A DNA stretch of 64,000 bases from Bacteroidales bacterium (GTDB lineage: Bacteria; Bacteroidota; Bacteroidia; Bacteroidales; UBA3663), in the NCBI GenBank assembly GCA_045639585.1, contig JAZUDJ010000088.1, positions 562-64,561 on the forward strand, in the 5' to 3' direction. Position numbers and translations under genes: made by a program. Each line of letters begins with the position of its first letter. Positions within the stretch are counted from its first letter, which is position 1. This document shows, in pieces, positions 2 through 39,488 of this stretch. Below the pieces are notes generated by a model that was given only the letters and a program-made list of their open reading frames with translations, searched no databases and was not told the DNA's origin.

Positions 2-241
2 GTACAGCAGGCCATGATCCAGCAGTACGAAGAGGCTGCCGCCTCGCTCCGCGCGCTTGGATCTCTGCCAAGCCTGCTCCAGCCAATGCAGGATACACTC
101 GATGCGATGAAGGAGATGCCTGTCGCCTCTCCTATCGAGACCGCCATCAGCCAGCTGAGCACCGACATCTTCTACGGCATGATCCTGATGATCCCGATCG
201 CATTCATCGTCCGCAAGAAGGGTGAGGAAAGTAATTTGTAA
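2..241 (+). CDS. 3' end of a CDS that starts upstream of the window; hypothetical protein with a C-terminal hydrophobic anchor
   Basis: The frame is open from base 2 and stops at TAA 239-241. The C-terminal hydrophobic stretch IFYGMILMIPIAFIV is followed by RKKGEE. No family recognised. Confidence 0.4.
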   Translation, partial: VQQAMIQQYEEAAASLRALGSLPSLLQPMQDTLDAMKEMPVASPIETAISQLSTDIFYGMILMIPIAFIVRKKGEESNL

Positions 242-258
242 TTCGTAATTTGTAATTG
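224..258 (+). repeat. heptamer array (GTAATTN variant), 5 units, across a stop/start junction
   Basis: GAGGAAA GTAATTT GTAATTC GTAATTT GTAATTG. TAA occurs at 232, 239, 246 and 253, which covers all three forward frames. The upstream CDS stops at 239-241 and the next ATG is at 264. Confidence 0.8.
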
Positions 259-263
259 TTCTT

Positions 264-1220
264 ATGTCTTTAGATATAAGCGTAATCGTCCCTCTATATA
301 ACGAAGCCGAGTCACTGCCAGAGCTGGCAGCATGGATCGACCGAGTCATGCAAGCCAATGGCTTCTCTTACGAAGTCATCTTCTGTAATGATGGCTCGAC
401 CGATGAGAGCTGGCAGGTGATCCGCCAGTTGCATGAGAAGTATCCGCAGATGCACGGCATGTCGTTCCGCACCAATCACGGCAAGAGCCCGGCTCTTCAT
501 GTCGGTTTCGGCATGGCGCAAGGCAATGTGGTCATCACGATGGATGCAGACCTGCAGGACTCTCCTGACGAGATTCCAGAGCTCTACCGCATGATCACTG
601 AGGATGGGTATGACCTGGTTTCTGGTTGGAAGAAGAAGCGTTTCGACCCGCTGTCGAAGACCATTCCGACCAAGCTTTTTAACGCCACCGTCCGCAAGGT
701 CAGCGGCATCAAGAACCTGCATGACTTCAACTGTGGTCTCAAGGCTTACCGCGGCGAGGTCGTCAAGCACATTGAGCTCTATGGCGATATGCACCGCTAT
801 ATCCCATATCTGGCCAAGAACGCTGGGTTCGGCAAAATCGGTGAGAAAGTTGTGCAGCACCAAGCGCGTAAGTATGGCAAGACCAAGTTCGGCCTCGACC
901 GTTTCGTCAATGGTTACCTCGACCTGATCACCCTCTGGTTCCTCAACCGCTTCGGCTCGAAGCCGATGCTGATCTTCGGTCTCTGGGGTACCGTGGTCTT
1001 CCTGATCGGTTTCGTCGCCGTGCTGAGTATCATCTGCCACAAGATCTATGTGCTCAATACCGTCGGCACCGGCACATTGATCACCAATATGCCAGCCTTC
1101 TACATTGCACTCACCTGCATGCTCCTCGGCGGACAGCTGTTCCTGGCAGGCTTCCTCGGCGAACTCATCTCACGCACCGCACAAGAACGTAATAAGTACG
1201 ATGTTGCAGAAACGATCTAA
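264..1220 (+). CDS. GT2 polyprenyl-phosphate glycosyltransferase (GtrB/DPM1/ArnC-like)
   Basis: Motifs VIVPLYNEAESL, CNDGSTDES and DADLQD (DXD), plus two C-terminal hydrophobic helices typical of GtrB-like enzymes. Confidence 0.85.
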   Translation: MSLDISVIVPLYNEAESLPELAAWIDRVMQANGFSYEVIFCNDGSTDESWQVIRQLHEKYPQMHGMSFRTNHGKSPALHVGFGMAQGNVVITMDADLQDSPDEIPELYRMITEDGYDLVSGWKKKRFDPLSKTIPTKLFNATVRKVSGIKNLHDFNCGLKAYRGEVVKHIELYGDMHRYIPYLAKNAGFGKIGEKVVQHQARKYGKTKFGLDRFVNGYLDLITLWFLNRFGSKPMLIFGLWGTVVFLIGFVAVLSIICHKIYVLNTVGTGTLITNMPAFYIALTCMLLGGQLFLAGFLGELISRTAQERNKYDVAETI

Positions 1221-1713
1221 CATACTCATCCTCCTGATCGGCATGGCGCTGGCCGTGCTGGGTGTAGCGTCGTGCGATAATGGCTGCGAACAGATGCGCG
1301 AGAGCTTTATGCACATCAGCCTCACCGGTACTACCAGCCGTTCGATCCGCAGCCTCAACATTGATGCTCATGGTCGCAAGCAAGGTATGGTGATGAGCGA
1401 CAGCACCACGCTGCAGTATACTCTGCCGGTCAGTAAGTTCGACAATATCGAACTGGAACTCAATCCGAATGACTCGCTCGTGACCTTCGTGCTCCGCAGC
1501 GAATATCAGGATTATGGAGATAAGTTCCAGGCCAATGATACCGTCCGTATCGTCTACAGCGTCAACGGACGATTCCTCGATATGGATTGTGGCTGCACCG
1601 TCGACTATGAGATCAAAAGCGTAAGCCATACCAAGAATCTGCTCGAAGACGTACACATCACCGATCCGAAGATCTTCACTGAGTCTGGTATCAATCTCGA
1701 GTTAACCTACTAA
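1201..1713 (+). CDS. hypothetical lipoprotein
   Basis: ATG at 1201 (MLQKRSNILILLIGMALAVLGVASC) gives a signal peptide with a lipobox Cys. The upstream part of ORF 1105-1713 overlaps the GT2 gene and is not signal-like. Confidence 0.55.
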   Translation: MLQKRSNILILLIGMALAVLGVASCDNGCEQMRESFMHISLTGTTSRSIRSLNIDAHGRKQGMVMSDSTTLQYTLPVSKFDNIELELNPNDSLVTFVLRSEYQDYGDKFQANDTVRIVYSVNGRFLDMDCGCTVDYEIKSVSHTKNLLEDVHITDPKIFTESGINLELTY

Positions 1714-1741
1714 CGATTAGTTGATAATAATCACTTATTAC

Positions 1742-2509
1742 ATGAATAGAATACTTCTGCCTCTCCTCCTCCTGCTGGCCTGCTGCATGCAGACCTTGCC
1801 GTCATGGGCTCAGGGCCGAAGTATCCCGAAAGGATCGCAGGCCAAGGCCGAAGAAGCCGCCGCGCTGATCGATGAAGAACTGCCGGAGGGCCAGACCTAC
1901 CGCTATCCGTTGTTCAATGGCCTTAATGTGAGCATCGACATCTTCGATCCGCTCTACGATCTCTTCTTAAGCGACCATGCCTCCTACGAAGCTCAAGCTA
2001 TGGTCGATCTGCATCATCGCTTTTTCCCACTCGCAGCCTTCGGTATGGGTTACGCGGATGAGAAATCGAATAATGGTATCGAATTCAGCACCGGGCAGAA
2101 GCAGGAGTTTACCTTCAAGTCAGAAATGGCGCCATTCCTCAAACTGGGTATGGCCTACAACCTCCGATACAACAGCACCAAGCCAGACGACCTCTATCTG
2201 ATCTTTGCCCGCTATGGCATTGCTCAGAATAAGGTTAATCTGACCAATCTCTACTACGCTTCGTCGAAATGGGATGACGTCCATCTGCCCGACATCATCG
2301 GCCAGAAGTACACGACCCAATGGATTGAGGCTGGCGTGATGCTCAAGGTGCAGCTTATCAAACACGTCTCACTCGGCTGGGATCTCTATGCGAAGATCAA
2401 GCTCAGCCAGAGTGGTACCGAAAACGGCAAGCCAGCCTTCGTCCCTGGCTACGGCGACTGCAGTTCACTCTTTGGATTCAATTTCAGAGTCTACTATGAT
2501 ATTTTCTAA
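1742..2509 (+). CDS. hypothetical outer-membrane beta-barrel-like protein
   Basis: Signal peptide MNRILLPLLLLLACCMQTLPSWAQ, alternating beta-strand-like composition and a C-terminal aromatic end (YYDIF). Confidence 0.5.
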   Translation: MNRILLPLLLLLACCMQTLPSWAQGRSIPKGSQAKAEEAAALIDEELPEGQTYRYPLFNGLNVSIDIFDPLYDLFLSDHASYEAQAMVDLHHRFFPLAAFGMGYADEKSNNGIEFSTGQKQEFTFKSEMAPFLKLGMAYNLRYNSTKPDDLYLIFARYGIAQNKVNLTNLYYASSKWDDVHLPDIIGQKYTTQWIEAGVMLKVQLIKHVSLGWDLYAKIKLSQSGTENGKPAFVPGYGDCSSLFGFNFRVYYDIF

Positions 2510-3551
2510 AAACACAGCCAAGATCCTGCTCTACCTGAGCACCGCCATCTGCCTCCTGTGCATCGTCCTTTTCCGACAGCACAAGCAGCAGGGAGAGGTG
2601 TCTTCGTCTATTCCATTTACTCGCATTGAGGGTAGCGTCTTCCACACCCTATACCATATCCAATACGCTGATAGCGTTGACTATCACCCACAGATCAAGC
2701 AACTGTTTGCCCAGTTCGACGGTTCGCTTTCCATGTTCAACGACACCTCCATCATCTCACGCATGAATCAGAATGATCCGGAGGTCATTGCCAACTGCTA
2801 CGTCCGCACCGTCTTCGAGAAAGCGCTCGAAGTCAGCAATCGCACCAACGGTGCTTTCGATATCACCGTCGCTCCTCTCGTTAACCTCTGGGGCTTCGGC
2901 TTCAAGAATTCTGACAATGTCAATCAGCAGATGATCGACAGCATCCTGCCTTTCGTCGGTTACCAAGGCGTCTGTCTCGACGTCGAAGGCCATCTGCACA
3001 AGAACGATCCCCGCACCATCCTCGACGCTTCGAGTATCGCCAAAGGCTATATGTGCGATATCGTGGCCGACTTCCTCCAAAGCAAAGGCGTCAATGACTA
3101 TATGATCGAGATCGGTGGCGAACTTGCCATCGGCGGGCACAACGCGCAGGACAAGATCTGGAGCGTGGGTATCAACCAGCCAGTCAATGACAGCCTGCAG
3201 ATCGGCAGCAACGAGCTCCGCGACATCATGCACATCACCGACTGTGGCGTGGCAACCAGCGGCAACTACCGTAACTTCTACTACAAGGACGGTCAGCGTT
3301 ATGCACATACCATCGACCCTAAGACCGGTTATCCTGTACAGCAGGACATCCTCAGCAGCACCGTAATCGCTCCCGACTGCATGACCGCCGATGCCTATGC
3401 CACCGCCTTCATGGTGATGGGTAGCGAGCGTGCACTCCGCGTCCTTGCAGCTGACACCACGCTGATGGCATACTTCATTGTCACCAAGCCTGATAGTGAT
3501 GAAACAAATGTCATTTATTCTCCAGGATTAAAGAAAATGTTAGGTCAATAG
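2496..3551 (+). CDS. apbE: FAD:protein FMN transferase (ApbE family)
   Basis: Motifs AFDITVAPLVNLWGFGF, DASSIAKGY and ATSGNYRNF. I chose ATG 2496 (MIFSKNTAKILLYL, N-terminal TM anchor) rather than 2388, which overlaps the upstream gene. Confidence 0.85.
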   Translation: MIFSKNTAKILLYLSTAICLLCIVLFRQHKQQGEVSSSIPFTRIEGSVFHTLYHIQYADSVDYHPQIKQLFAQFDGSLSMFNDTSIISRMNQNDPEVIANCYVRTVFEKALEVSNRTNGAFDITVAPLVNLWGFGFKNSDNVNQQMIDSILPFVGYQGVCLDVEGHLHKNDPRTILDASSIAKGYMCDIVADFLQSKGVNDYMIEIGGELAIGGHNAQDKIWSVGINQPVNDSLQIGSNELRDIMHITDCGVATSGNYRNFYYKDGQRYAHTIDPKTGYPVQQDILSSTVIAPDCMTADAYATAFMVMGSERALRVLAADTTLMAYFIVTKPDSDETNVIYSPGLKKMLGQ

Positions 3552-3574
3552 TCTCGCGCAACCGAAACTATCGG

Positions 3575-3622
3575 CCCCTAGTATCCCTTAATATCCTTTA
3601 GATTCCCCTAGATATCCCTTAA
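3575..3622 (+). promoter_or_regulatory. tandem ~10-nt pyrimidine-rich repeats in the pyrB leader
   Basis: CCCCTAGTATCCCTTAA (3575-3591) and CCCCTAGATATCCCTTAA (3605-3622) flank TATCCTTTAGATT. Read as ~10-nt units: TATCCCTTAA / TATCCTTTAG / ATTCCCCTAG / ATATCCCTTAA. The array ends 10 nt before the pyrB ATG. Confidence 0.4.
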
Positions 3623-3632
3623 ATAAAATAAT

Positions 3633-4547
3633 ATGGAAAAGAAATTCATTTCCGTTACCGACCTCAGCAAAGACGACATCCTGAGTTTGCTCGAAGATGC
3701 CGCTCAGTTTGAGCAGAACCCTAACCAGCGACTTCTGGAGGGTAAGGTCGTGGCTACGCTGTTCTTTGAGCCAAGTACACGTACCCGCCTTAGTTTCGAA
3801 ACCGCAGCCAACCGCCTCGGTGCTCGTGTCATCGGCTTCAGTGATCCGAATGCCACCTCTACCAGCAAGGGCGAGACGCTGAAAGACACCATCAAGATGG
3901 TCAGCAACTACGCTGACGCCATCGTGATGCGCCACTACCTCGAGGGTGCTGCACGCTATGCCAGCGAGGTGACCAACGTGCCTATCATCAATGCAGGCGA
4001 CGGTGCCAACCAGCATCCATCGCAGACCATGCTCGACCTCTATTCGATCTGGAAGACACAGGGGACACTCGAGAATATCGACATCACTATGGTAGGTGAT
4101 CTCCGCTACGGCCGCACCGTCCACTCACTGGTACAGGCCCTCTCGTTCTTCAATCCACGCTTCCACTTCATCGCACCAGATCTGCTCCGCATGCCACACG
4201 GCTACCGCGACTTCTGCGTACGTCACAACCTCTACTACGATGAGAGCGAGGTATTCGACGAGAATGCCATCAACAATACCGACATCCTCTACATGACCCG
4301 TATCCAGAAGGAGCGCTTTACTGATCTCCGCGAATACGAGCAGGTCAAGAATGTCTATACCCTCCATCGCTCGATGCTTGAGAATGCACGTCCAAACCTC
4401 CGCGTCCTCCATCCGCTCCCACGCGTCAACGAGATCGCATACGATGTGGACGACAGCGATAAGGCTTATTACTTCCAGCAGGCTCAGAATGGTCTCTACG
4501 CCCGTCAGGCCATCATCTGCAAGATGTTAAATATTAAAGTAAGATAA
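3633..4547 (+). CDS. pyrB: aspartate carbamoyltransferase catalytic subunit
   Basis: Motifs [13 protein letters not shown] (STRTR carbamoyl-phosphate motif), HPSQ and HPLPRVNEI. Length 304 aa. Confidence 0.95.
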
Positions 4548-6213: not shown

Positions 6214-7362
6214 TCAAGGGCGGAAAGAATTGACCCTCTTCACTACCTCTTCCACTTCTACATCCGCCAGCACGGGACTCATCGGCAGCGAGAGTTCCTG
6301 TGCACAAATCTGTTCTGTGATAAGCAACGACAGATGATGTAATTCCGGGTAACATTCCTGCTGATGAGGAGGTATCGGATAATGAATCTGCGTCTGGATT
6401 CCTTGCGAAGACAAATGCTGCTGCAAGGCGTCTCGATGGGTAGAAAGAACCGGGAAAATATGGTAGACAGAAGAGAGCGACATCTGCTCATACTTCTGCG
6501 AAGGAACAGCGACGAAGCTTTGCTCCATATTCTCATGATAGTATCGAGCGATTTCCTGACGTCGCTGGTTATCATCATCCAGATGGTGGAGCTTGACAGA
6601 AAGTATGGCCGCCTGCAGTTCATCTAATCGGCTATTGCGACCTTTATACTTGAACTCATATTTCTTATGGCTGCCATAGTTGGCCAACGCTCGGATGACC
6701 TCAGCCAACTCGGCATCATCCGTTGTTACCGCACCACCATCGCCTAAAGCTCCGAGGTTCTTGCTCGGATAGAAGCTGTGTGCAGCTGCATGGCCTAACG
6801 CCCCGGTCTTTCGGCAGCACCTCTCAGCACTCCGCACTCCACACTCCGCACTCCCAAGACCATGCGCCTGTGCATTGTCCTCCAGAACTAGCAGGCCATA
6901 TTTCTTAGCCAGTTCCCCAATTCTCTCAGTATAGGAGCATGCACCATAGAGATGCACCAACAGGATAGCTCGAGTGCGAGAACAGATGGACTGTTCTATC
7001 AGCGAGTCATCTATCTGCAGTGTATCGAGACGAGGCTCCACCAGCACCGGAGTCAATCCATTCTCTGAGATTGCCAGAATTGTCGCAATATACGTATTGG
7101 CAGGAACGATCACTTCATCTCCAGGAGCGATCTTTCCCAATTCCATATACGCTCGCAGCATGAGAATCAGTGCATCGAGACCACTAGCACAGGATATACA
7201 GTAACGGGTTCCGATGTATCGCGCATACTCCTCCTCGAAGCGTGTGCACTCCTCTCCAAGCAAATACCAACCTCGATCAATCACCCTGCGAGTTGCCTCA
7301 TGCAGTTCCTCGGCATAGCGTGCATTGATCTTCTGCAAATCCAGGAACTTAACCTCTCTCAC
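6214..7362 (-). CDS. DegT/DnrJ/EryC1/StrS-family sugar aminotransferase (PLP-dependent)
   Basis: Motifs EDNAQAHG and HSFYPSKNLGALGDGG (PLP-Lys region). GTG start at 7362-7360 overlaps the stop of the upstream GT4. A heptamer array sits between the two motifs. Confidence 0.9.
   Translation of the reverse strand: MREVKFLDLQKINARYAEELHEATRRVIDRGWYLLGEECTRFEEEYARYIGTRYCISCASGLDALILMLRAYMELGKIAPGDEVIVPANTYIATILAISENGLTPVLVEPRLDTLQIDDSLIEQSICSRTRAILLVHLYGACSYTERIGELAKKYGLLVLEDNAQAHGLGSAECGVRSAERCCRKTGALGHAAAHSFYPSKNLGALGDGGAVTTDDAELAEVIRALANYGSHKKYEFKYKGRNSRLDELQAAILSVKLHHLDDDNQRRQEIARYYHENMEQSFVAVPSQKYEQMSLSSVYHIFPVLSTHRDALQQHLSSQGIQTQIHYPIPPHQQECYPELHHLSLLITEQICAQELSLPMSPVLADVEVEEVVKRVNSFRP
6827..6854 (-). 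repeat. heptamer tandem array, 4 units, inside the DegT ORF (sense orientation)
   Basis: Plus strand GCACTCC GCACTCC ACACTCC GCACTCC. On the gene strand it is translated as SAECGVRSAE. Confidence 0.85.
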
Positions 7363-8584
7363 TAAGTACTTCTCTATAGAATTCGTAGAGTTTTTCTCTC
7401 ACAAATCCCTGCTCCCAACGCTCCGATATAATCTGACGAGCTCGCTTACCCATCTGCAGGCGCTCCTCCTCATGCTCCATCATCCAGCACATAGCCTCAT
7501 AAAGAGCATCAGCATCCTTCGATGGAACCATGACTCCATTCTCGCGGATACTCATTGTCTCCCCTGGCTGCAGATGCTGCGATACGTATTGTGAATCTAT
7601 CGCTTTAAGAATGATATCCCTGCATCCATTGATATCCGTCACGATCGATGCCAGCTCCATAGCACCAGCTTCGAGCACCGTATTCGGGAAACCTTCACGA
7701 TAGCTAGGGAATACGAAGCAATCAGCAGCGGCATAATATGCCAGCAGGTCTTCTATTGGTTTTGGACCTACCGCCTCAATCTCTGGCATCGTATCAATAA
7801 GGTGGCGTGTCTCTGGAGTAACGGGATCCAGATGATCCTCAATCCATCCGACCAGCACTAGACGACAACTTCTCCCTTCTCCCTTATTCTTTTTACTTTC
7901 AATAAGCTTGTTAAATGCAGCAACAAGCTCATTGATACCCTTATCGCCTACGATACGACCTACAAACAGAAACGTGAAGAGCTTTTTTCCATCAGGGGCA
8001 ATAGCTCCTAACTCCTCACTCCAAACTCCTACCATTTCTGGCTTTTGCCAGAATGAAAGATCTACTCCCTTCACATTACCATAGCCAAGAAGACGCATCG
8101 GCTTTTTGGTAATTCCGTAATTCTTCAGATCGTCGAGAACTCCGAGACTCTCAGGAATCACATGGGTGGCACAGGCGCAGGTTATTCTGTCGGTCATCAT
8201 CAGGATCTTACGCTTGATTCCTGATGTCGTTGGCCATATCAATCCTGTAAATGTATGAATACGATATGGAACTCTTGCCATCCATGCCGCCATCATACAC
8301 AGCAGACCAGCTTTCGGGGTCATGGAGTGCACCATATCCGGTTTCTCAGCGCGGAAGACACGATACAAAGCCCACAAGGCCTTCATATCCTTGACCAAAG
8401 AGATCTTTCTCTCCATCTCCACCCCGATGGTGCGGACATCCTCACGGGCAGCGACCTGCTTCAGATCCTCATCGGGTGAAGACACCGCTACTACCTCATA
8501 TCCTTGATCCTTCAAATCCTGTAAGATACCTTTACAGAAGATATTCAAGGATAGGCCGATCGTTGCACAACGTATAATTTTCAT
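7349..8584 (-). CDS. glycosyltransferase family 4
   Basis: FVFPSYREGFPNTVLEAGAMELASIVTDINGCRD (the E-x7-E region of the GT4/GT1 fold). Length 411 aa. Confidence 0.85.
   Translation of the reverse strand: MKIIRCATIGLSLNIFCKGILQDLKDQGYEVVAVSSPDEDLKQVAAREDVRTIGVEMERKISLVKDMKALWALYRVFRAEKPDMVHSMTPKAGLLCMMAAWMARVPYRIHTFTGLIWPTTSGIKRKILMMTDRITCACATHVIPESLGVLDDLKNYGITKKPMRLLGYGNVKGVDLSFWQKPEMVGVWSEELGAIAPDGKKLFTFLFVGRIVGDKGINELVAAFNKLIESKKNKGEGRSCRLVLVGWIEDHLDPVTPETRHLIDTMPEIEAVGPKPIEDLLAYYAAADCFVFPSYREGFPNTVLEAGAMELASIVTDINGCRDIILKAIDSQYVSQHLQPGETMSIRENGVMVPSKDADALYEAMCWMMEHEEERLQMGKRARQIISERWEQGFVREKLYEFYREVLSERG
8002..8029 (-). repeat. heptamer tandem array, 4 units, inside the GT4 ORF (sense)
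   Basis: Plus strand TAGCTCC TAACTCC TCACTCC AAACTCC. Translated as GVWSEELGA. Confidence 0.8.
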
Positions 8585-9237
8585 CCGAGTACGGTTTCAA
8601 GAATATACTTTATATCCAAAGACAGAGACTGATGGCGATAATACTCCAGATTGATTTTCACCTTATCCGGATAGATCACATAATCATTATACCACAGCGC
8701 AATCTCCTCATCGCTCATCGACGAGAACTCGACAGCAGGGCATTCACTCCTAACTCCTAATTCCTCACTCCTAACTTGATGAAGAAAATCTGCAATCAGA
8801 TTTTCCTCATCTCTGTACTTCAGCGTTGCCGGCCCCGTAATTCCAGGACGAAGCTCTAGCACCAATCGGTCCTCCCCGACCAACTTATCAGCATAGCCTG
8901 GGACATCCGGGCGCGGACCGACAAAACTCATGTCGCCGATAAAGACATTCCACAATTCAGGCAGTTCGTCGAGCTTATATTTGCGAAGCTTTGCGCCCAA
9001 TGGAGTGATACGCGCCTCTCCAGCCACACTCACGCTGCTACCGCCATGGCTCACAGTCATCGAGCGGAACTTATACATCGTGAACAGATCGCCATGCAGC
9101 CCCACTCTCTTCTGCTTGAAAATCGCAGGTCCTCCCGGCATCTTTACCTTTATTAATATAGCTACAACGATCAGCACCGGCCATAACAGCAGTAGCCCGA
9201 TCAGTGCCATCACTCTATCAAATATCCATTTACTCAT
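8581..9237 (-). CDS. small bacterial sugar transferase (PglC/WcfS-type polyprenyl-phosphate hexose-1-phosphate transferase), likely the initiating enzyme
   Basis: N-terminal re-entrant helix, then FTMYKFRSM and DELPELWNVFIGDMSFVGPRP. At 218 aa it is slightly longer than the ~200 aa I expect for this family, and it carries a heptamer array. Confidence 0.9.
   Translation of the reverse strand: MSKWIFDRVMALIGLLLLWPVLIVVAILIKVKMPGGPAIFKQKRVGLHGDLFTMYKFRSMTVSHGGSSVSVAGEARITPLGAKLRKYKLDELPELWNVFIGDMSFVGPRPDVPGYADKLVGEDRLVLELRPGITGPATLKYRDEENLIADFLHQVRSEELGVRSECPAVEFSSMSDEEIALWYNDYVIYPDKVKINLEYYRHQSLSLDIKYILETVLG
8744..8778 (-). repeat. heptamer tandem array, 5 units, inside the sugar-transferase ORF (sense)
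   Basis: Plus strand TCACTCC TAACTCC TAATTCC TCACTCC TAACTTG. Translated as VRSEELGVRSEC. Confidence 0.85.
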
Positions 9238-14334: not shown

Positions 14335-15600
14335 TTACTCACACAGCTTATAGATCTTCTCGATCTCCGACTCATTGCCATAATCATGCTCTGACAGATA
14401 CTCAGTCAATGAGCTCAGCAACTTCTCATCCTTGATTACCTTAATCATCGCCTCAGCACACGCCTCACGCTCCAATGGCACAATCACTCCATCCACACCA
14501 TCCTGCACCTGCGACGGCGCCGTAGGATAATGCGTCACAATCACCGGCTTGCACAATATCTGCGCCTCCCTCACCGTAATGCTTTTCCCTTCATACCGCG
14601 AAGGCTGTACATAGATATCGCACGTACGGATATATGGATAAGGATTCGACTGCTTGCCAAGTAGAATCACGTGCTCCTCCATCCCTTCCTTGCGAATCTC
14701 ATCCCTCACCTGTTGCTCAATCTCAGGACTTCCGTAGCCGATAATGTACCACTTGACATTCCTACCTCCAAACTCTTCACTCTTACTTATGTCGTCGACC
14801 AATCGCCGACATAAGTAAGGAATGTCTTCCATCTTCTTAGCCTTCGAGTATCGTCCTATCGTCAAGAGCTTTAAATAATGATCCTGCTCAAATATAGGGC
14901 AAGACTCCTGACTTCTCTGACGAATAAAACGCGGAGATAGAATATTCTCGATATCAATAATCTTATTTTTCAAAGAAGGGAATACCTCCACGAACTTAGC
15001 CGATACATCAGGAGAAATAGAAGAGATCACATCCAGACGCTCCCACATGCGCAGCTCCATCTCCCGATTGATGAATACATTCGTATAGTCCGTGTGGATC
15101 CATCCAAGCTTCTTCTTCGCACGGACTTTATCCAGTACAATATAATGAGGTGTCAGAAACGAAATTGCCAGATCATATTCCACCTCAGGATTAATCTTCG
15201 GCAAACACTTCACAGTCCTATGCTGCTGAAACACAACATGCGCATTACTCTCCAGCCCCTTAACATTACGCTTCAGATATCTCTTATCCTCCCATCTACC
15301 CCAAAGTCGAGCAAGAGCCAGTCGCCAGTATCCTTTCTTTATCAGCAACGCTATCGGCTCTTCCAGCATCGCATAAGCCTCCACCTCCGGCAGCAATCTA
15401 AATCTAGGGACAATCTGGCATTCCTCACTCCTCACTCCACACTCCTCACTAATATAATGCATCAACTCCCCTCTATGCGCATAAATAAAAACATCCACCT
15501 CTGAACGAACAGGATCCACACTCTGCAGCAAGCCGAGAAGTGCCATCTCAGCACCACCCAGCTCCATATAATGCATCGCTATAAGAATCTTCGGCCTCAT
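14335..15600 (-). CDS. glycosyltransferase family 4
   Basis: IYVQPSRYEGKSITVREAQILCKPVIVT. Carries two repeat insertions (14763-14819 and 15418-15452). Confidence 0.8.
   Translation of the reverse strand: MRPKILIAMHYMELGGAEMALLGLLQSVDPVRSEVDVFIYAHRGELMHYISEECGVRSEECQIVPRFRLLPEVEAYAMLEEPIALLIKKGYWRLALARLWGRWEDKRYLKRNVKGLESNAHVVFQQHRTVKCLPKINPEVEYDLAISFLTPHYIVLDKVRAKKKLGWIHTDYTNVFINREMELRMWERLDVISSISPDVSAKFVEVFPSLKNKIIDIENILSPRFIRQRSQESCPIFEQDHYLKLLTIGRYSKAKKMEDIPYLCRRLVDDISKSEEFGGRNVKWYIIGYGSPEIEQQVRDEIRKEGMEEHVILLGKQSNPYPYIRTCDIYVQPSRYEGKSITVREAQILCKPVIVTHYPTAPSQVQDGVDGVIVPLEREACAEAMIKVIKDEKLLSSLTEYLSEHDYGNESEIEKIYKLCE
14763..14819 (-). repeat. heptamer units fused to a 13-bp perfect hairpin inside the GT4 ORF
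   Basis: TACCTCC AAACTCT TCACTCT (14763-14783). Hairpin CTTACTTATGTCG (14782-14794) / CGACATAAGTAAG (14807-14819). Translated as PYLCRRLVDDISKSEEFGGRN. Confidence 0.75.
15418..15452 (-). repeat. heptamer tandem array, 5 units, inside the GT4 ORF (sense)
   Basis: Plus strand GCATTCC TCACTCC TCACTCC ACACTCC TCACTAA. Translated as ISEECGVRSEEC. The reverse complement of 15427-15446 equals 23100-23119. Confidence 0.85.
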
Positions 15601-15636: not shown

Positions 15637-15671
15637 GAACTCCTCACTCCTAGTTCCTCACTCTTCATTAA
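15637..15671 (-). repeat. heptamer tandem array, 5 units, filling an intergenic gap
   Basis: Plus strand GAACTCC TCACTCC TAGTTCC TCACTCT TCATTAA. The reverse complement of 15638-15667 matches 21994-22023 at 28/30. Confidence 0.85.
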
Positions 15672-20813: not shown

Positions 20814-21053
20814 CTAAAGAAAATTGGACAAAGATACTTGGGCAATCATCGTCCTACAACCCACATTCCACCTAGTATCTTGCCAACAATCCATACAAAC
20901 AGGCTTGTAACAAAGCCCGCAGCGGTAATGTATGATGATCCGCTCAGGAACCAAGCAGGCCCCCCCCATACCCGGACGCTGGGAGTGCATAAATACAATC
21001 ATCACACAGGCGATGATGCGAAGGAGATCAAGATAGAGGATTCGCTGGTTCAT
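20814..21053 (-). pseudogene. 5' remnant of an acyltransferase-3 family gene, frameshifted at a G8 tract and truncated
   Basis: MNQRILYLDLLRIIACVMIVFMHS is a typical family N-terminus. After the G8 run (C8 on plus, 20960-20967) the frame becomes Cys-rich nonsense. With G7 it would read PAWFLSGSSYITAAGFVTSLFVWIVGKILGGMWVVGR before stopping. Only about 80 codons remain of an expected ~330 or more. Confidence 0.6.
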
Positions 21054-21834
21054 GATTGTTCCATCCGGTTTTGAAATTCTCCGTTGCATTCTTTTTATCT
21101 GCTATTTCCTTCTCCATTCGCATGATGGCTGTGCGGAAAAAGAATTCTATGAGAGGCTGCGCATCATTGCGGAAAACTTTCATACAGGAAAGATAATCCT
21201 CTCGCTGCTCCTGCGTAACGATGAGAATGGGGAGATTGTATCGAAGGAGAATCTTATTACAAAGCAGTCGACCCAACCGACCATTACCATCACGGAACGG
21301 ATGAAGCCACTCAAAGTGACCATGGAAGATTGCTGCTGCCTCCATGGGATGCCATCTGCCACCAGCCAGCGCCTGCTCTACCTGAGTCAGGAGCTGTGGC
21401 ACTCTGGCTATAAGTACCTCATGATCGCCGAAGATGGTATCTCCCGCACACATATCATGATCGGTGTATTCACCAGGCAAGGCTCCAGCATGGCGGTATG
21501 CGATGGTGTGCTCGGTGAGCAGGAAATGCAGGTGCTTGATATAGTCTTCGGTCAATGGAACCTCAACGGTTCGTACCATCTCCTCGTATGCACGGAAATG
21601 GTCAAGCATCTCAAAGGCTTCAACCAAAGGTTTACCCTGGGGGATCATTCCAAGGCCTCTCTCTTTCAGCGTGCGTGTCTCATCTACAGTAAAGGAATTA
21701 CCTTCTATAGCACAGCTATGAGCAGAGAACAGAATCTCGTTATAATCCCTGAAGTCTTCGTATGAGAATCTGTCAGATATATACTCGCGATACTCTTGAG
21801 ATAAGGTATCAAATCTTTGGATGAGTTGTTCCAT
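21028..21834 (-). CDS. Fic-family protein (AMPylase-type active site, auto-inhibitory motif present)
   Basis: HPFRDGNGRLGRLL matches HxFx(D/E)GNGRxxR. An N-terminal SCAIEGN matches the (S/T)xxxE(G/N) inhibitory helix. ATG at 21834; the longer ORF to 22098 overlaps the VirE-like gene. Confidence 0.85.
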   Translation of the reverse strand: MEQLIQRFDTLSQEYREYISDRFSYEDFRDYNEILFSAHSCAIEGNSFTVDETRTLKERGLGMIPQGKPLVEAFEMLDHFRAYEEMVRTVEVPLTEDYIKHLHFLLTEHTIAYRHAGALPGEYTDHDMCAGDTIFGDHEVLIARVPQLLTQVEQALAGGRWHPMEAAAIFHGHFEWLHPFRDGNGRLGRLLCNKILLRYNLPILIVTQEQREDYLSCMKVFRNDAQPLIEFFFRTAIMRMEKEIADKKNATENFKTGWNNHEPANPLS

Positions 21835-21849
21835 TTTGAAAATATTCAG

Positions 21850-21986
21850 GTTCCACGGGGTGGAAGGGTGTGTCACTTTTCGAACATTTCGTTCCACCCA
21901 CCAATAATTCCCGACACCTTGCCTACCCCCTCGGGAATTATTTCTTTTCCGCAGAAAGTTTATGAATCCGATACACCCTTCCACCC
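21850..21986. other. highly structured 187-nt spacer between the VirE-like and Fic genes (nested inverted repeats)
   Basis: Outer IR GGGTGGAAGGGTGT (21858-21871) / ACACCCTTCCACCC (21973-21986). Inner 12-bp stem AATAATTCCCGA (21903-21914) / TCGGGAATTATT (21931-21942) with a 16-nt loop. Small hairpin TTCCAC-GGG-GTGGAA (21851-21865). Confidence 0.6.
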
Positions 21987-21996
21987 TTTTTTGTGA

Positions 21997-22024
21997 AGAG
22001 TGAGGAATTAGGAGTGAGCAGTTA
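21997..22024 (+). repeat. heptamer tandem array, 4 units, at the 3' end of the VirE-like gene (antisense to it)
   Basis: AGAGTGA GGAATTA GGAGTGA GCAGTTA. The last TTA is the stop codon (reverse complement TAA) of 22022-24280. Confidence 0.85.
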
Positions 22025-24280
22025 TTCGACGCGAACCAAATATCTTTTGATACCATGAAGAATGCGGCATTCAAAACCCTGACGGCCAAGCGCAGCACCT
22101 AAGGCTCTGACATTCAGCTTTGCCGACGGATTGTAGTAATTGATTCGCGCTGCAATCTCCGCCGCAGTCATCCACTTGCTGTCGCTCAGCGGTTGGCCAT
22201 CCTCTCCAAGATTAGGTTGGTGTACATAGACACTGCACAGTTCCACCTCAACGCTCTGCGACACATACTGCTCATTGTGCTTGTCGAGCTGTCGGATGTC
22301 CTGCTGGCTCATCACAAACATCCCAGCCTCATGCTGCGCCAGATAGAGAGCTTGCGCGTAAATATGTTCGTAGTCGGGACGACACTCGAAAGGATTGACG
22401 GTAAAGCGACGCACCGTAAATGTCAGCCAGCGGCGGTTGCCTGTCGGGTCGGTCAGGAAGTCGGCGCGATTGCCCGTAGCGCAGAACGTAGCGATACGCG
22501 GCATGGTACGTGGCGACTTGTCGTATGGCAAACGTTCGCGGATCACATCGAGCGTGACGAGAGACTTGAGTTGATTGACCTCCACCTCGCTCATCGCATC
22601 GATCTCCTCCAGGTTAATCAATCCGCACTCGGCCAGCTGGATGCGGTCGTCCTTGTCGAGGTTGCGGAAGCGCATCTGCTCCTTATAATAAGCGCGAAGC
22701 TCCGGTGGCATCAGCATACGCATCCACGAGGACTTGCCTATGCCCTGCGCACCGATGAAAGTCAGGATTGTGCCATGGGTGCTCGACATGTGAATCCAGC
22801 CGTGCACCATCGCCACCATCCAGCGCTTGAAGAAGTCGTCGAGCAAGGCGCGCGTCTCCTCGCCACCCTCCACCTCCACCGTCTGGATCAGCTCGTGAAG
22901 GTAGTCCTTATCACCAGGCTTCCACAATCCTTGCAACGGCTGCAGATACGCTATAATAGGATTGTAGGGCAATGAGCAGGTGTCACTCTGAAGGACATTA
23001 TACACGTCGGTCGATGTGGTGGTCAATGCAGTTTCCTCAAAGAACAGGCGCATCAAGGTGGCGACATCCGAGTCGTGCAACTCGTAATAGTGTGGAATTA
23101 GGAGTGTGGAGTGAGGAGTTTTTCCACTCTCGCACAAAGATCCGACCAAAGCCAATGACGACAGGTTACGCTGAGCGTATTGAGCCATTTGCGAGCCTTC
23201 ATTCCACTCGACCTCCAGTCGGTGAGAGATCATATTCTTGCGATACGTTCCCTGACTCAGCAAAAACGCCTCGATGTCAGCCGACGTGGCGCGATGCACC
23301 TTCTTCTCGCTGTTTTTCTGCTGGTTAGGCAATCGAAGTGTACCGAACTCTGCCTGCTTCGACTCGTAAATGCTCTTCACCACGCTCGTGATACCACGCT
23401 CTCCGTCACCATAATAGAAGTAGCGCTCCTTAGCCTCAGCCAGCGCCTCTTCCTGCTCGATGCCATAGCGATTGACCTCATAAATGACGGTGCTAAGGAA
23501 CTTGTTCAACGTGCCATGCTTCGCCTCAAATCCTTGCGTCTTGGCAAAGGCCTCAGCGGCATCAAAGGCTCTGGACAGCTGCGTCTTGACAGGTCGTCCC
23601 ACCGGATTGCCCGTCGCCATATGGGCCTTGCTCTGCTCAAAGTCGAGCAAAGCCTGGCTTAAGATAACGGTATAGGGCTGATAGTTATCCTTAAAATACT
23701 TAGCCTCAGGATCGTATGCCATAGCACTCGGTCGCGCTGCATCCTTACACTGCGTATCGACACGGAGATCCTTCAGCGTCGGAGCATTCGAGAACCACTC
23801 CTCAAACTGGCGGCGCACATCCTCCCAGATGGCATTCCACAGCAGGCGTGAGCGCTGACTCTTCTTCGGATCACGGAAGTCGAGCTCCGCCAAGTCCATC
23901 GGCTGCATATCGTGATAGCACACCTGATAGGCCACGATGACGTGCAGGCCCTTGCCGCTCAACGACCGGTGATAGCCAACGACATGCATCAGCATACCGA
24001 GGTAAGCGACCATGTATTCCATCTGCTTCTCATCCAGATGGTCATAGTCGAAGTAAAGCAATCCAGTGAGCTGCTTGATATTCTCCGTCTTCCTGCCACC
24101 CTCCATGATGGCCGACGGTACGAACACCGGCACGCGCTGCTTTTGCCCCACTCCCTGACGGTGCATCTCTGTCTGCATCCGCAAGTCCTGATCCGTCTTT
24201 ATTTTCGTAAAGACGTCGCCCAGCGACACTATCTGCGGGGGGGTAGACAGTAGATTATTGAAAGTTGAAACGGTTTCCAA
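22022..24280 (-). CDS. VirE-like P-loop NTPase with an N-terminal primase-like (VirE_N/BT4734-like) region
   Basis: Walker A FIGAQGIGKSSW. 752 aa with a large N-terminal domain. TTG start at 24280, 9 nt after the HTH gene stop. The family call comes from remembered architecture, not a search. Confidence 0.75.
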   Translation of the reverse strand: METVSTFNNLLSTPPQIVSLGDVFTKIKTDQDLRMQTEMHRQGVGQKQRVPVFVPSAIMEGGRKTENIKQLTGLLYFDYDHLDEKQMEYMVAYLGMLMHVVGYHRSLSGKGLHVIVAYQVCYHDMQPMDLAELDFRDPKKSQRSRLLWNAIWEDVRRQFEEWFSNAPTLKDLRVDTQCKDAARPSAMAYDPEAKYFKDNYQPYTVILSQALLDFEQSKAHMATGNPVGRPVKTQLSRAFDAAEAFAKTQGFEAKHGTLNKFLSTVIYEVNRYGIEQEEALAEAKERYFYYGDGERGITSVVKSIYESKQAEFGTLRLPNQQKNSEKKVHRATSADIEAFLLSQGTYRKNMISHRLEVEWNEGSQMAQYAQRNLSSLALVGSLCESGKTPHSTLLIPHYYELHDSDVATLMRLFFEETALTTTSTDVYNVLQSDTCSLPYNPIIAYLQPLQGLWKPGDKDYLHELIQTVEVEGGEETRALLDDFFKRWMVAMVHGWIHMSSTHGTILTFIGAQGIGKSSWMRMLMPPELRAYYKEQMRFRNLDKDDRIQLAECGLINLEEIDAMSEVEVNQLKSLVTLDVIRERLPYDKSPRTMPRIATFCATGNRADFLTDPTGNRRWLTFTVRRFTVNPFECRPDYEHIYAQALYLAQHEAGMFVMSQQDIRQLDKHNEQYVSQSVEVELCSVYVHQPNLGEDGQPLSDSKWMTAAEIAARINYYNPSAKLNVRALGAALGRQGFECRILHGIKRYLVRVE
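23094..23121 (+). repeat. heptamer tandem array, 4 units, inside the VirE-like ORF (antisense orientation)
   Basis: GGAATTA GGAGTGT GGAGTGA GGAGTTT. Read on the gene strand as KTPHSTLLIP. Confidence 0.85.
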
Positions 24281-24289
24281 ATTATGGAG

Positions 24290-24766
24290 TTATTTCGAAT
24301 TAAGACTACGGCGCTTCTTAATCTCCTCGCGCATCATGAGCCACAACTCAGGACCGGCATTGCTCTTCTCCCCTCGTACAGTCAAACCGAGTTTGCGCTG
24401 GAATAATCGCCACAAGGTGGAGTCATTCGCATAACCGAAAACCTTGGCGACGTCATCGAGCTTAGCATCCGGATGCACCCCGATATACTCCTCCACCTGA
24501 TGGATACGGTATTGCTGAATCACATCGATCAACCGCATATCCATTTCGAGCTGAATAGCATAAGCCAACTTGCGAGCATCGACAGCGAGATACTCTGCCA
24601 GTTCCTTGCTCTCAATGCACTTCGTATCATAAAGAGCTTCCGCCACCGCATTGACGAGGCGCGACGCTGTGTATGTCTCCGGCTGACCAGGGATATAATC
24701 GAAAACTTGCTGTAAAGTGACAGCAGGAAGATAAGGTTTAGTTTCTTTCATAATAGATTTTGACAT
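24290..24766 (-). CDS. AraC-type helix-turn-helix DNA-binding protein (single HTH_18-like domain)
   Basis: ELAEYLAVDARKLAYAIQ... and LDDVAKVFGYANDSTLWRLFQRKLGLT. ATG at 24766 (MSKSIMKETKPY); 24751 is an alternative. The track ORF to 24934 starts at TTG and only translates the upstream repeats. Confidence 0.7.
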   Translation of the reverse strand: MSKSIMKETKPYLPAVTLQQVFDYIPGQPETYTASRLVNAVAEALYDTKCIESKELAEYLAVDARKLAYAIQLEMDMRLIDVIQQYRIHQVEEYIGVHPDAKLDDVAKVFGYANDSTLWRLFQRKLGLTVRGEKSNAGPELWLMMREEIKKRRSLNSK

Positions 24767-24949
24767 TAGGGACGTGATGTTAGAATAATTGTCTTGTGAG
24801 TCTAACACTGCGGACGTAGTGTTGGTATCTGAGAGCTGCGAGTCTAACACTACGTCCCTAGTGTTAAGTCTCACGGCCTGCGAATCTAACACTACGTCCG
24901 CAGTGTTAGATCCATTCGTGCAAGATATTAACAACGCGAACGTAGTGTT
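24762..24949. repeat. five palindromic sites with exact 42-bp phasing upstream of the HTH gene
   Basis: Cores: 24762-24781 GACATTAGGGACGTGATGTT (degenerate), 24804-24823 AACACTGCGGACGTAGTGTT, 24846-24865 AACACTACGTCCCTAGTGTT, 24888-24907 AACACTACGTCCGCAGTGTT, 24930-24949 AACAACGCGAACGTAGTGTT. Centres fall at 24771.5, 24813.5, 24855.5, 24897.5 and 24939.5. Confidence 0.85.
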
Positions 24950-25035
24950 AACACATAAGCTTCGCTAAGGTCTCCCACGAATCTTTTCGCGACAAACCCC
25001 GCTCAGTTATTGTATAAATAATATATTGCACGCGA

Positions 25036-25043
25036 CAAAGATA
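25036..25043 (-). promoter_or_regulatory. candidate -7 box for the HTH-VirE-Fic unit
   Basis: The minus strand reads TATCTTTG, matching TAnnTTTG. No convincing -33 TTTG. It sits about 270 nt upstream of ATG 24766, so the five palindromes would be in the leader. Confidence 0.3.
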
Positions 25044-25083
25044 ATAATAATTATAATACGTTGGTAAAAAAGGGATAAAAAAA

Positions 25084-25119
25084 GTGAGATTGACACGGGA
25101 AAAGTCGTGTCAACCTCAC
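25084..25119. terminator. bidirectional intrinsic terminator downstream of the last gene of the upstream glycan sub-cluster
   Basis: GTGAGATTGACACG - GGAAAAGT - CGTGTCAACCTCAC (14-bp stem, 1 mismatch). Flanked by A7 on the left and TTTT on the right. Confidence 0.7.
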
Positions 25120-25169
25120 TTTTAATAACGATTTATTATTATTTCGTATATCAAAATATAGAATTCTTC

Positions 25170-38645: not shown

Positions 38646-39488
38646 CTATACGGTATCCATAAAGTTGCGCTCGGTATGAGAAAAGACAATGACGCTTAGG
38701 AAGAGGCCGACAAACATGAAGATGGTGCTGTAGAGGAGTCCTCCCCAATCAAGAGTGCCACATCCGAGGCTGGAGTATTTGAAAGCCTCGAAAATAGGAG
38801 TCAAAGGATTTAGGGCAATGATTTCGCGATACTTCTCTGGAGCGGCGCTCAGTGGATAGATGACTGGGGTGGCATACATGAATAGCTGGATGCCAAACTG
38901 AATGAGAAACTTGAGGTCGCGATACTTTGTGGTCAGCGAGGAGATGATCAGACCCCAGCTCATAGAATGGAGAGCGAGCAATACCACTAAAAGTGGGAGA
39001 ATGAGGAGTGAGGAATGAGGAGTAAGGAATTGACCTGCTTGGGTAAAGAACTTGAAATAGAGATATACCATTATGAAGAGGACGAGCTGAATGAGCATCT
39101 TCAGCAGGTTGCTCGTAGCAATGCTGAGGGGCACCACCAAACGTGGGAAATAGACCTTACCAAACACGTTGGCATTAGCAGAGAAGATATCAGAGCAAAG
39201 GGTGAAGGTCTCACTGAAATAATTCCAGAGCAAGATGCCAGCCATGTAAAAAAGTGGTTGAGGTGCCCCATCGGTACTGATGCCGGCTAGTCCACCAAAC
39301 ACAAACATGTACATAATGGTGGTAAAGACGGGCTGGATGACATACCATAACGGTCCAAGGATAGTCTGCTTGTACTTGGTGACGATATCACGCTTGACAT
39401 ACATGACATAAAGGTCGCGATAGCGCCATAAACCTTTGATATCAATATCCAATAGGCCTCGACGTGGGGTGATTACATGTTCCTGCAT
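38646..39488 (-). CDS. wzm: ABC-2 type polysaccharide exporter permease (Wzm/TagG/KpsM-like)
   Basis: 280 aa with six hydrophobic helices and an ABC-2 pattern (KYKQTILGPLWYVIQP). The ATPase partner lies 8.5 kb upstream at 48037-49317. Confidence 0.8.
   Translation of the reverse strand: MQEHVITPRRGLLDIDIKGLWRYRDLYVMYVKRDIVTKYKQTILGPLWYVIQPVFTTIMYMFVFGGLAGISTDGAPQPLFYMAGILLWNYFSETFTLCSDIFSANANVFGKVYFPRLVVPLSIATSNLLKMLIQLVLFIMVYLYFKFFTQAGQFLTPHSSLLILPLLVVLLALHSMSWGLIISSLTTKYRDLKFLIQFGIQLFMYATPVIYPLSAAPEKYREIIALNPLTPIFEAFKYSSLGCGTLDWGGLLYSTIFMFVGLFLSVIVFSHTERNFMDTV
38998..39032 (+). repeat. heptamer tandem array, 5 units, inside the wzm ORF (antisense orientation)
   Basis: AGAATGA GGAGTGA GGAATGA GGAGTAA GGAATTG. 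Read on the gene strand as FLTPHSSLLIL. Confidence 0.85.

Follow-up and report, generated by a model that had tools for sequence, protein, structure and literature searches.

The array and its adjacent gene

Analysis of the window, a 64,000-nt stretch of contig JAZUDJ010000088.1 from a Bacteroidales bacterium, revealed a tandem array of palindromic sites directly upstream of a gene coding for a protein with two helix-turn-helix (HTH) motifs, referred to here as the HTH gene. The HTH gene (24290-24751, minus strand) encodes an AraC-family protein of 153 amino acids (aa) that matched Pfam HTH_18, and it is the conserved partner of the array. The whole array consists of five contiguous 42-bp units covering 210 bp (24751-24960), and it stops exactly at the HTH start codon.

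The coordinates of the array were determined by direct reading of the sequence, pattern search, a repeat finder and a scan for symmetry centres. The core AACACT-N8-AGTGTT was found by pattern search in three perfect copies, which are the palindromic sites of unit 2 (24888-24907, AACACTACGTCCGCAGTGTT), unit 3 (24846-24865, AACACTACGTCCCTAGTGTT) and unit 4 (24804-24823, AACACTGCGGACGTAGTGTT). The core of unit 1, promoter-proximal in the HTH sense, lies at 24930-24949 and carries two mismatches (plus strand AACAACGCGAACGTAGTGTT), and the repeat finder added a degenerate, start-proximal core in unit 5 at 24762-24781, which reads AACATCACGTCCCTAATGTC and then AAAATCTATTATG in the HTH sense. The start-to-start distances were 42, 42, 42 and 42 bp, so that the five palindromic sites with exact 42-bp spacing reported in a preliminary description of this DNA were recovered on recount. 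The scan placed the symmetry centres at 24771, 24813, 24855, 24897 and 24939, with intervals of 21 and 42 bp. Since each 20-bp site forms the core of a 42-bp unit and the units adjoin one another, the phasing is exact as described but reflects the length of the unit and not the spacing of separate sites. Reading of the sequence further bore out that CTAACACTACGTCCGCAGTGTTAG (24886-24909) is the exact reverse complement of CTAACACTGCGGACGTAGTGTTAG, to which 24802-24825 is identical at 23 of 24 positions, and the centre therefore flips between copies. Across the five units its orientation is forward, forward, reverse, reverse and forward.

The motif ACAC-N10-GTGT has four exact matches in the 64-kb window against 0.48 expected, all four within 24805-25110, and AACACT-N8-AGTGTT with up to two mismatches has five against 2.0 expected, four of them clustered at the array. 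Chance is ruled out as the source of this cluster of palindromes.

The HTH start codon is the ATG at 24751-24749, because the sequence MKETKPYLP is conserved throughout the family. The fifth core lies 11-30 nt upstream of this ATG and overlaps solely an alternative in-frame ATG at 24766-24764; the degenerate copy noticed earlier is thus present but does not overlap the true start, as had been supposed. Gene callers translate the array: the 214-aa open reading frame (ORF) that begins with TTG (24290-24934, minus strand) is a spurious extension, in agreement with the earlier view that the long ORF to 24934 just translates the repeats. Related annotation artefacts are called 'genes' of 81 aa and 95 aa (L054 2891-3136; L055 1616-1903) and protein P0010, a 198-aa HTH call bearing a periodic VNT motif, in which the array is translated as an N-terminal extension. 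Arrays of this kind consequently yield spurious ORFs and over-long HTH gene calls (81-198 aa in related contigs).

The AlphaFold2 model of the HTH protein (mean predicted local distance difference test score 85.7) showed the seven-helix AraC DNA-binding fold, with a 30-residue N-terminal extension and a C-terminal helix as additions. The best Foldseek matches were all AraC-family DNA-binding domains, namely AraT, AdpA, Rns, ToxT, SoxS and MarA, with a root-mean-square deviation of 1.9 A over 102 columns for MarA (1bl0). A profile search of the PDB returned VirS and SoxS with weak sequence similarity (best E-value 1.5e-4). No sensor, ligand-binding or dimerisation domain was detected by Pfam, by the PDB profile search, in the model or by Foldseek. 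According to the model, the HTH protein is a stand-alone MarA/SoxS-like AraC-family DNA-binding domain, and the AraC-type protein earlier placed next to the array is confirmed by Pfam, fold and structural matches alike. The HTH family is very small, comprising 87 clusters at 90% identity; among 1.84 billion protein representatives (50% identity clusters) 13 were found at E<=1e-30 and 31 at E<=1e-10.

Distribution, conservation and setting of the units

Every relative of the HTH protein with sufficient upstream sequence was inspected, which gave 13 independent loci at 42-100% identity; the loci used for comparison are short metagenomic contigs or metagenome-assembled genomes (MAGs) labelled just 'Bacteroidales bacterium'. 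An array of four to seven units in 42-bp phase was found directly upstream of the HTH gene in 12 of the 13 loci, usually stopping no more than ~10-40 nt short of the start codon. The array-bearing loci are the window, L013/L011 and L017/18 (89-94% HTH identity), L015, L016, L019, L020/21, L022/23, L048-50 and L054/55 (62-67%), and L057/58 (49%) and L056 (42%). The HTH gene and the array are a conserved two-part module, inherited together.

The genes downstream of the HTH gene were found to be variable cargo: VirE with Fic, a 268-aa protein with Fic, HTH_31 with HipA, ABC2 membrane proteins with AAA_15/DUF3226 or DUF4276, WecG, VanZ with RhuM, a phytase-like protein, and an AAA-ATPase/PDDEXK protein. 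In the window these are, by Pfam, a gene with a VirE/BT4734-like N-terminal domain and a VapE-like primase-helicase-type region (22022-24280, minus strand) and a Fic-domain gene (21028-22098, minus strand). Only the window and L013 have the VirE-like gene behind the HTH gene, at a distance of 9 bp, and a Fic gene also follows in L017/L018 but without VirE. Since the array stays with the HTH gene while the downstream genes vary, its partner is the HTH gene and not VirE or Fic. As to the check proposed earlier, whether the motif always accompanies the HTH/VirE pair, it goes with the HTH gene but not with VirE, which is limited to the window and L013/L011.

A scan of 185,579 species genomes, with two perfect sites separated by a free gap of 12-42 nt as query, gave 14 loci, of which 11 came from three Bacteroidales MAGs or one small HTH-gene contig. 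The exact 42-bp phase was present in all 11 Bacteroidales loci, in-phase AACACT arrays were confined among these genomes to the three MAGs and the one contig, and all three MAGs encode an HTH-family member. Two Bacillus arrays with a 52-bp period and one Flavobacteriales array with a 22-bp period were set aside, as they have the hexamers in common with the Bacteroidales arrays by chance.

Analysis of the MAGs indicated that arrays are also dispersed over seven independent intergenic loci (L001, L003, L004/L012, L005, L006/L007, L008 and L010), with no HTH gene within the 8-kb stretches examined. Scattering of the motif away from the neighbouring genes, which the preliminary description had named as evidence against its proposal, was thus found in part. 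Six of the seven dispersed loci lie between convergent genes (binomial ~0.001, calculated by hand with a 25% prior for convergent spacers). The convergent flanks, assigned by Pfam and Rfam, are carboxyltransferase and sugar transporter, SusD and GT2, PD40 and GH5, an unannotated ORF (no Pfam match) and DUF418, glucosaminidase and MFS, and a lipoprotein with tRNA/tsf. In ~130 kb of unselected sequence no arrays besides the HTH-linked ones were found. All five arrays of JAZQQH, dispersed and HTH-linked, bear GTCAACACT. JAZRXZ and the window have CTAACACT arms, some dispersed units bearing the related variants CTGACA and TCAACA, and the only family member found in JAZUIL (L056) has the arm type CCATTACACC, unlike the dispersed arrays of that MAG.

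Placed in the 42-nt register, the arrays are contiguous units, some of which are palindromic over almost their whole length with up to 17 bp per arm; the L001 unit CCGTGAATACTGACACTACGTACCAAGTGTCAGTATTCACGG has 17 of 17 arm pairs and is palindromic across the full 42 bp. Intervals of 21 and 42 bp dominated in all 22 arrays examined by the symmetry-centre scan, a generic low-threshold scan being noisy. The unit phase is 42 bp at every locus, even where the spacers are unrelated in sequence, an argument for its length being under constraint. Palindromic units of other types but likewise 42 bp long, such as TCACGGCATCCTCCAC...GTGGAGGATGCCGTGA and TGCACGAAACCATAAC...TATGGTTTCGTTCA, occur in the same frame within AACACT arrays (L005 6719-6886; L008 926-1009; L010 2859-3026). 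Since several unit types are common to one array and one 42-bp frame, the arrays are mosaics.

The region from the terminator hairpin to the start codon was aligned for the window-type loci and L015, and the following identities are against L015. The promoter plus leader was 87% identical, the unit arms 92% and unit 5 85%, with 28% for the centres, 32% for the spacers and 48% for the third codon positions of the HTH gene (62% aa identity). To give a baseline, other genes were compared between these two species lineages: at third positions tsf was 95% identical, rpsB 89%, a 253-aa gene 70% and a lipoprotein gene 53%, and an ordinary intergenic spacer was 68% identical, with indels. Measured against this baseline the arms, unit 5 and the promoter-leader are therefore constrained. 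In every window-type locus, L015 among them, unit 5 is conserved at 85-95%, and an AATGTCA(A/G) motif recurs directly before the start codon in L016, L019, L022 and L048. The centres and spacers turn over between loci yet stay uniform within one array.

Comparison of the paralogs showed that the arms co-vary symmetrically (AACACT/AGTGTT, AACACC/GGTGTT, AACGTT/AACGTT, GACAAC/.ATGTC, TACACC/GGTGTA and GACAC/GTGTC); such paired changes are expected under a hairpin as well as under a symmetric protein site. Unit sequence evolves in concert within a genome, and copy number is unequal in orthologous dispersed arrays (L004 vs L012, L006 vs L007). The centre of unit 2 is GCGGACGT in the window and its exact reverse complement ACGTCCGC in L013 and L011, with unchanged flanks, and the centre of unit 1, in the HTH sense, is ACGTTCGC in the window and the flipped GCGAACGT in the orthologous L017 unit. 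These in-place flips would be the expected product of recombination or template switching between short inverted arms, and their presence between orthologues indicates that the orientation of the centre is not under strong selection.

A Bacteroidetes-type -7 box, TATCTTTG, is located at 25036-25043 (minus strand). Earlier only a candidate, it is real and conserved in related loci, being invariant in L011, L013, L015 and L017; its position relative to the start codon is -291/-292 in L013, L015, L017 and the window. The array of the window therefore most likely lies in a ~280-nt leader. A conserved leader between the -7 box and unit 1 (24955-25035, minus strand) contains a small hairpin (24969-25000, GGUUUGUCGCGA-AAAGAU-UCGUGGGAGACC) whose pairing, judged by eye on only five sequences, is kept through stem changes in L017 and L015, and an AT-rich stretch adjoins the array at ~25010-25060. 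Further upstream, a strong hairpin with A-run and T-run flanks (25081-25122) is read as the bidirectional intrinsic terminator of the upstream glycosyltransferase operon; in L011, L013, L015 and L017 its arms are conserved and its loop is variable. A unit-like core, TTGACAC-N10-GTGTCAA, lies inside this hairpin (25090-25113), ~72 bp upstream of the inferred transcription start, and to call it a putative sixth binding site is speculation. The conserved block starts at the terminator hairpin whatever lies upstream, be it GT2 (window), pyruvyl transferase (L013, L015) or LB_356 (L017). Terminator, -7 box and ~75-nt leader together (24955-25138, minus strand) are 87-94% identical across loci whose HTH proteins are just 62% identical, and this block may be a separate regulatory RNA/DNA element or a recombination anchor for swaps of polysaccharide sub-clusters.

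The block lies within a ~47-kb, low-GC, minus-strand surface-polysaccharide locus, which extends from Wza (51851-52684) and Wzc (49314-51812) to an aminotransferase (6214-7362) and carries between these ends an ABC transporter, many glycosyltransferases and an EpsG-type polymerase. The other HTH-linked arrays are also mostly found in polysaccharide loci, with L022, L056 and L057 as exceptions. Toxin- or defence-like cargo, including DUF3990, RhuM and Tubulin_2, is frequent just downstream of the HTH gene (window 21028-24280; L015 6560-10064; L016 6706-10313; L048 3677-5337; L054 3779-7595; L057 5582-10447), and this slot looks like an insertion hotspot within polysaccharide loci. Beyond Fic, a 91-aa ORF (20814-21089, minus strand) matches just the first 24 positions of the Acyl_transf_3 profile and holds a run of eight G (20960-20967), which could be a frameshift or a phase-variable tract; the acyltransferase orthologue is intact in L017. 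A second TATCTTTG -7 box is found at 20829-20836, ~40 nt ahead of a GT2 gene starting at 20789.

Other repeats were noted in the lineage and beyond it. Three metagenome contigs of the Joint Genome Institute (JGI) carry paired 42-bp palindromic units, TTGTCGAATCCAACAC-N10-GTGTTGGATTTGACAA, that follow a gene end (L030 493-576, L032 836-919, L045 153-236); these contigs are without an HTH gene, and the units may be a related repeat family of another lineage. A protein scan of the JGI metagenome collection guided by the HTH alignment found no relatives, and a relaxed two-site DNA pattern gave 23 loci there, nearly all of them unrelated 21/22-bp tandem repeats and none with the HTH protein; the lineage is essentially absent from this collection. 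A second small repeat family of the lineage appears to be the AT-rich (GTAATTT)n at 231-257 of the window, which forms long inverted repeats between tsf and a tRNA gene in L006 (4445-4560) and L007 (4856-4999). Heptamer tandem repeats of the GAGGAGT/ACTCCTC type, with 3.9-4.6 copies of the 7-bp unit, recur throughout the window (6823-6854, 8005-8031, 8746-8776, 15422-15450, 15639-15667, 23089-23119, 38999-39030 and 57298-57329); at least one is intergenic (15639-15667, just upstream of a gene starting at 15600) and others lie inside ORFs. Literature searches returned nothing relevant on such Bacteroidales repeats or on AraC-linked arrays.

Interpretation of the array

We propose, with a probability of roughly 45%, that the array is a putative platform to which the adjacent HTH protein binds, its units being drawn from a dispersed family of palindromic repeats specific to the clade. 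In favour of this proposal we count the linkage in 12 of 13 loci across differing contexts, the rarity of both the HTH family and the array together with their co-occurrence, and the arm sequence common to dispersed and HTH-linked arrays in JAZQQH and JAZRXZ. The conservation of the arms against drifting centres and spacers in the L015 comparison, which points to selection on the arms, was likewise counted, as were the symmetric co-variation of the arms among paralogs, the complete two-HTH domain without a sensor, and the 42-bp phase kept despite unrelated spacers. The anatomy of the array, its linkage to the gene, the pattern of conservation, the fold of the protein and the dispersed copies are observed; that the HTH protein binds the units, which is most likely, and what follows from binding are inferred. 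The protein would recognise the units via their conserved ACAC...GTGT arms, with no constraint on the sequence of the 8-bp centre or of the spacer, and the 42-bp repeat (~four helical turns) would hold successive sites in register. In the window, occupancy of the array between the -7 box and the start codon might gate expression of the HTH gene, and might also gate read-through into VirE, Fic and the second half of the polysaccharide locus. The dispersed arrays would be further copies of the same binding unit, and the HTH protein probably has targets beyond its own leader. The operator or autoregulatory region suggested in the preliminary description fits the tie between array and HTH gene.

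Several observations weigh against binding by the HTH protein. Arrays at convergent 3' ends, far from promoters, are typical of repeats of the REP (repetitive extragenic palindromic) and BIME (bacterial interspersed mosaic element) kind and not of operators. The family member at L051-53 stands without an array in the upstream sequence inspected. This gene is the last of an operon (136-4459) with DUF3987, a VirE-like primase-helicase, a 308-aa gene and a 164-aa gene, which hints at an origin of the HTH family in a primase-bearing mobile element. MarA-type monomers normally read asymmetric sites with recognition elements ~10-11 bp apart, and the arms of the units are symmetric and ~14-15 bp apart; half-unit logos, drawn with a 21-bp marbox-like site in mind, showed ACA and a single conserved A seven positions off, with no clear second block. 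A point in favour, that a residue in recognition helix 1 (Y64 here) tracks the flank of ACA, with Y for CTAACA, H for GTCAACA, C for CTGACA and N for TTAACG or ATTACA, is suggestive, yet this correspondence between residue and arm is confounded with phylogeny. The order of array and promoter varies: in L022 and the window-type loci the -7 box precedes the array, in L056 the array precedes a -7 box, and L016, L019, L020, L048 and L057 yielded no such box. In addition, every locus comes from an uncultured metagenome assembly.

The dispersed copies can also be read without any binding by the HTH protein, as a structural or selfish repeat of the REP/BIME kind that spreads via a transposase, or via slippage or template switching at hairpins, the HTH-linked array being a tolerated or recruited copy. 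Its roles, if any, would be played by DNA or RNA hairpins and would be those of a terminator or insulator, protection of mRNA 3' ends, or management of supercoils between convergent genes. We consider this somewhat unlikely. The units in at least seven unrelated intergenic regions of three MAGs, six of seven convergent, some of them palindromic over the full 42 bp, fit such a family well, and so do the mosaic arrays of L005, L008 and L010 and the dynamics of copy number, centre flips and concerted evolution. Subclasses of REP-associated tyrosine transposases (RAYTs) with atypical flanks are known in Bacteroidetes (PMC6006769), and tandem REP arrays lie beside exopolysaccharide genes in Thauera (PMC3733652). 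What it leaves unexplained is that 12 of 13 members of a rare family, down to 42% identity and in unrelated contexts, have their own type of array immediately upstream, reaching to the start codon, and that the arm sequence is conserved beyond pairing. The copy number looks low, since the genome scan found four, four and two two-perfect-site arrays per MAG, and no Y1 transposase was found near any array in the flanks examined, whole genomes being outside that search. This reading and binding by the HTH protein are not fully exclusive, as one describes how the family evolves and the other what reads it. If the array acts as RNA instead, a ~280-nt 5' untranslated region with five stem-loops and the leader hairpin would control mRNA stability, read-through or the start of HTH translation, and where a promoter is lacking these hairpins would work within intercistronic RNA, as the intercistronic REPs of E. 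coli do. The five stem-loops of the preliminary description are possible, given the likely leader, and the conserved promoter and leader, a predicted fold of -104 kcal/mol (z = -7.8 vs shuffled controls), G.U to A-U and C-G changes that preserve the 24969-25000 hairpin in L017, and arrays that fill the entire gap between two co-directional genes at several loci all agree with them. A strong fold score, however, is a property of any palindrome array, and independent hairpins need no strict 42-nt period. The non-Watson-Crick stem positions in the HTH sense were A.C 81 times and G.U 40 times, counts that are not phylogenetically independent; the asymmetry is opposite to selection for sense-strand hairpins and gives the stem-loops no support. 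The conservation of arm sequence beyond pairing and the only -7-like box of L056, downstream of the array, also speak against RNA action. No Rfam 15 family matched the window at gathering score; sensitive scans gave just weak generic hairpin or miRNA-like matches, the best on the window array being BTnc231 (18.6 bits vs a threshold of 80.4 bits), which was absent on other arrays. We regard control by the leader RNA as distinctly improbable.

The variable, toxin- and defence-rich cargo and the start of the conserved block exactly at the terminator hairpin, whatever the upstream gene, would suit a centromere-like or recombination platform, in which the units nucleate a nucleoprotein complex for segregation or for exchange of polysaccharide cassettes, and the architecture closely matches that of sopC (PMC3177203). 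This is very improbable: none of the flanks yielded a gene for ParA, ParB or a recombinase, the loci are chromosomal, and neither a second array nor a partial unit, as expected of an att-like boundary, was found at the far end of the VirE-Fic cargo in the window. The iteron or replication-origin idea of the preliminary description, in which the array would be an origin or other DNA-processing site for the VirE-like primase-helicase, is already largely refuted by the distribution of the arrays and hardly tenable. The BT4734-N/VapE-like NTPase that follows the HTH gene by 9 bp in both the window and L013, the operon with a DUF3987 primase-helicase-like gene at L051 and the AT-rich stretch next to the array do agree with it. 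However, 10 of the 12 array-bearing loci (all but the window and L013/L011) have the array beside the HTH gene without a VirE-like gene, and an array is missing from the one locus where a DUF3987 gene lies upstream. Housekeeping genes, too, have such arrays between them, the units are not direct repeats but palindromic, with centres that flip, and the composition profile shows no skew change at the array. The system is thus probably one of protein plus repeat rather than a replication origin. A CRISPR array was also considered and rejected, because the 'spacers' are repeated or palindromic extensions of the unit and not unique, and the centre orientation flips; no cas gene was present among the window genes scanned against Pfam.

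If the HTH protein does bind the units, the result is a compact, experimentally testable module of regulator and array at junctions of polysaccharide sub-clusters, in uncultured gut Bacteroidales, a group in which little is understood of capsule regulation beyond Bacteroides. Binding would also make this a rare REP/BIME-like family with an identifiable cognate DNA-binding protein other than a transposase, which bears on the old question of the role of such repeats and of how their uniformity is kept. By analogy, an undescribed partnership of protein and repeat could be imagined that follows the logic of RAYT-REP or ParB-parS on a MarA-like domain, with the HTH gene and its array as the home copy, paralog-specific units, protein-coated arrays that act on transcription as programmable insulators or roadblocks, and locus-specific control of read-through in glycan loci. 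We think this rather unlikely; were it true, cognate units would be expected at polysaccharide-locus junctions and convergent gene ends chromosome-wide, and the system would be a functional counterpart of UpxY/UpxZ in a clade with a different solution. Three observations are independent of any mechanism: the 42-bp length is strict although the spacers are free, the 8-bp centre flips in place from one close relative to another, and the arms evolve in concert throughout the genome.

Comparison with known systems

MarA, SoxS and Rob-type proteins bind ~20-bp sites, and the HTH protein resembles them as a complete two-HTH AraC domain of similar size without a sensor, with candidate sites of ~20 bp that occur in both orientations and adjoin the gene of the regulator itself. 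The co-inheritance of sites with the adjacent AraC-family gene in 12 of 13 loci is as expected of AraC/MarA operators. The known boxes, however, are asymmetric, usually single or few, and not arranged in tandem palindromic repeats, whereas those found here are symmetric, number four to seven per array in strict 42-bp phase and are also located away from the gene. Rns and ToxT use multiple sites, including ones downstream of the start site.

REP/BIME elements (PMC2817692, PMC3733652) have the genomic distribution closest to that of the dispersed arrays. Both are short extragenic, imperfect palindromes in regularly spaced clusters, with orientation changes, a preference for 3' ends and convergent genes, genome-specific sequences, and a single-copy gene flanked by cognate repeats; the seven dispersed loci of the three MAGs show this, with regular clusters at gene 3' ends and orientation changes that are irregular and not strictly alternating. 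In contrast to REP systems, the flanked gene codes for an AraC-type DNA-binding protein and not for a Y1 HUH transposase, the units are contiguous and exactly 42 bp long, and the copy number is apparently low. GTAG was found inside many stems but inconsistently, and no conserved unpaired GTAG or CGTC tag was established.

The sopC region of plasmid F, in which SopB binds a 16-bp inverted repeat within each of 12 direct repeats of 43 bp (PMC3177203), has an almost identical architecture of tandem ~4-helical-turn units with one palindromic core each. The arrays differ in being chromosomal, in occurring several times per genome, and in the lack of adjacent genes for a partition ATPase or ParB-type protein, none of which was found in the window flanks or related loci. 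The likeness to iterons is limited to the repeated short sites near a primase-helicase-type gene in the window. Plasmid and phage iterons, such as the ori/crr repeats of the P4 alpha primase-helicase, are direct repeats tied to a Rep gene, while the units here are palindromic and tied to the HTH gene; their centres flip between copies and orthologues, and 10 array loci are without VirE.

In Bacteroides, UpxY/UpxZ provide leader-based control of polysaccharide operons through a NusG-like antiterminator. PMC8757827 cites an inverted repeat of 77 bp that lies upstream of the K-antigen locus in P. gingivalis. The likeness to such leaders lies in the head of a polysaccharide block, where a promoter is followed by a long, structured leader and the gene of a small regulator, and in each paralog having its own type of leader sequence; the differences are that the regulator is of the AraC type and not a NusG-like antiterminator, and that the leader is a tandem repeat. 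No homology to these systems was found, though no search was aimed at it. The module of array and HTH gene is filed as a variant of these known kinds and a member of none.

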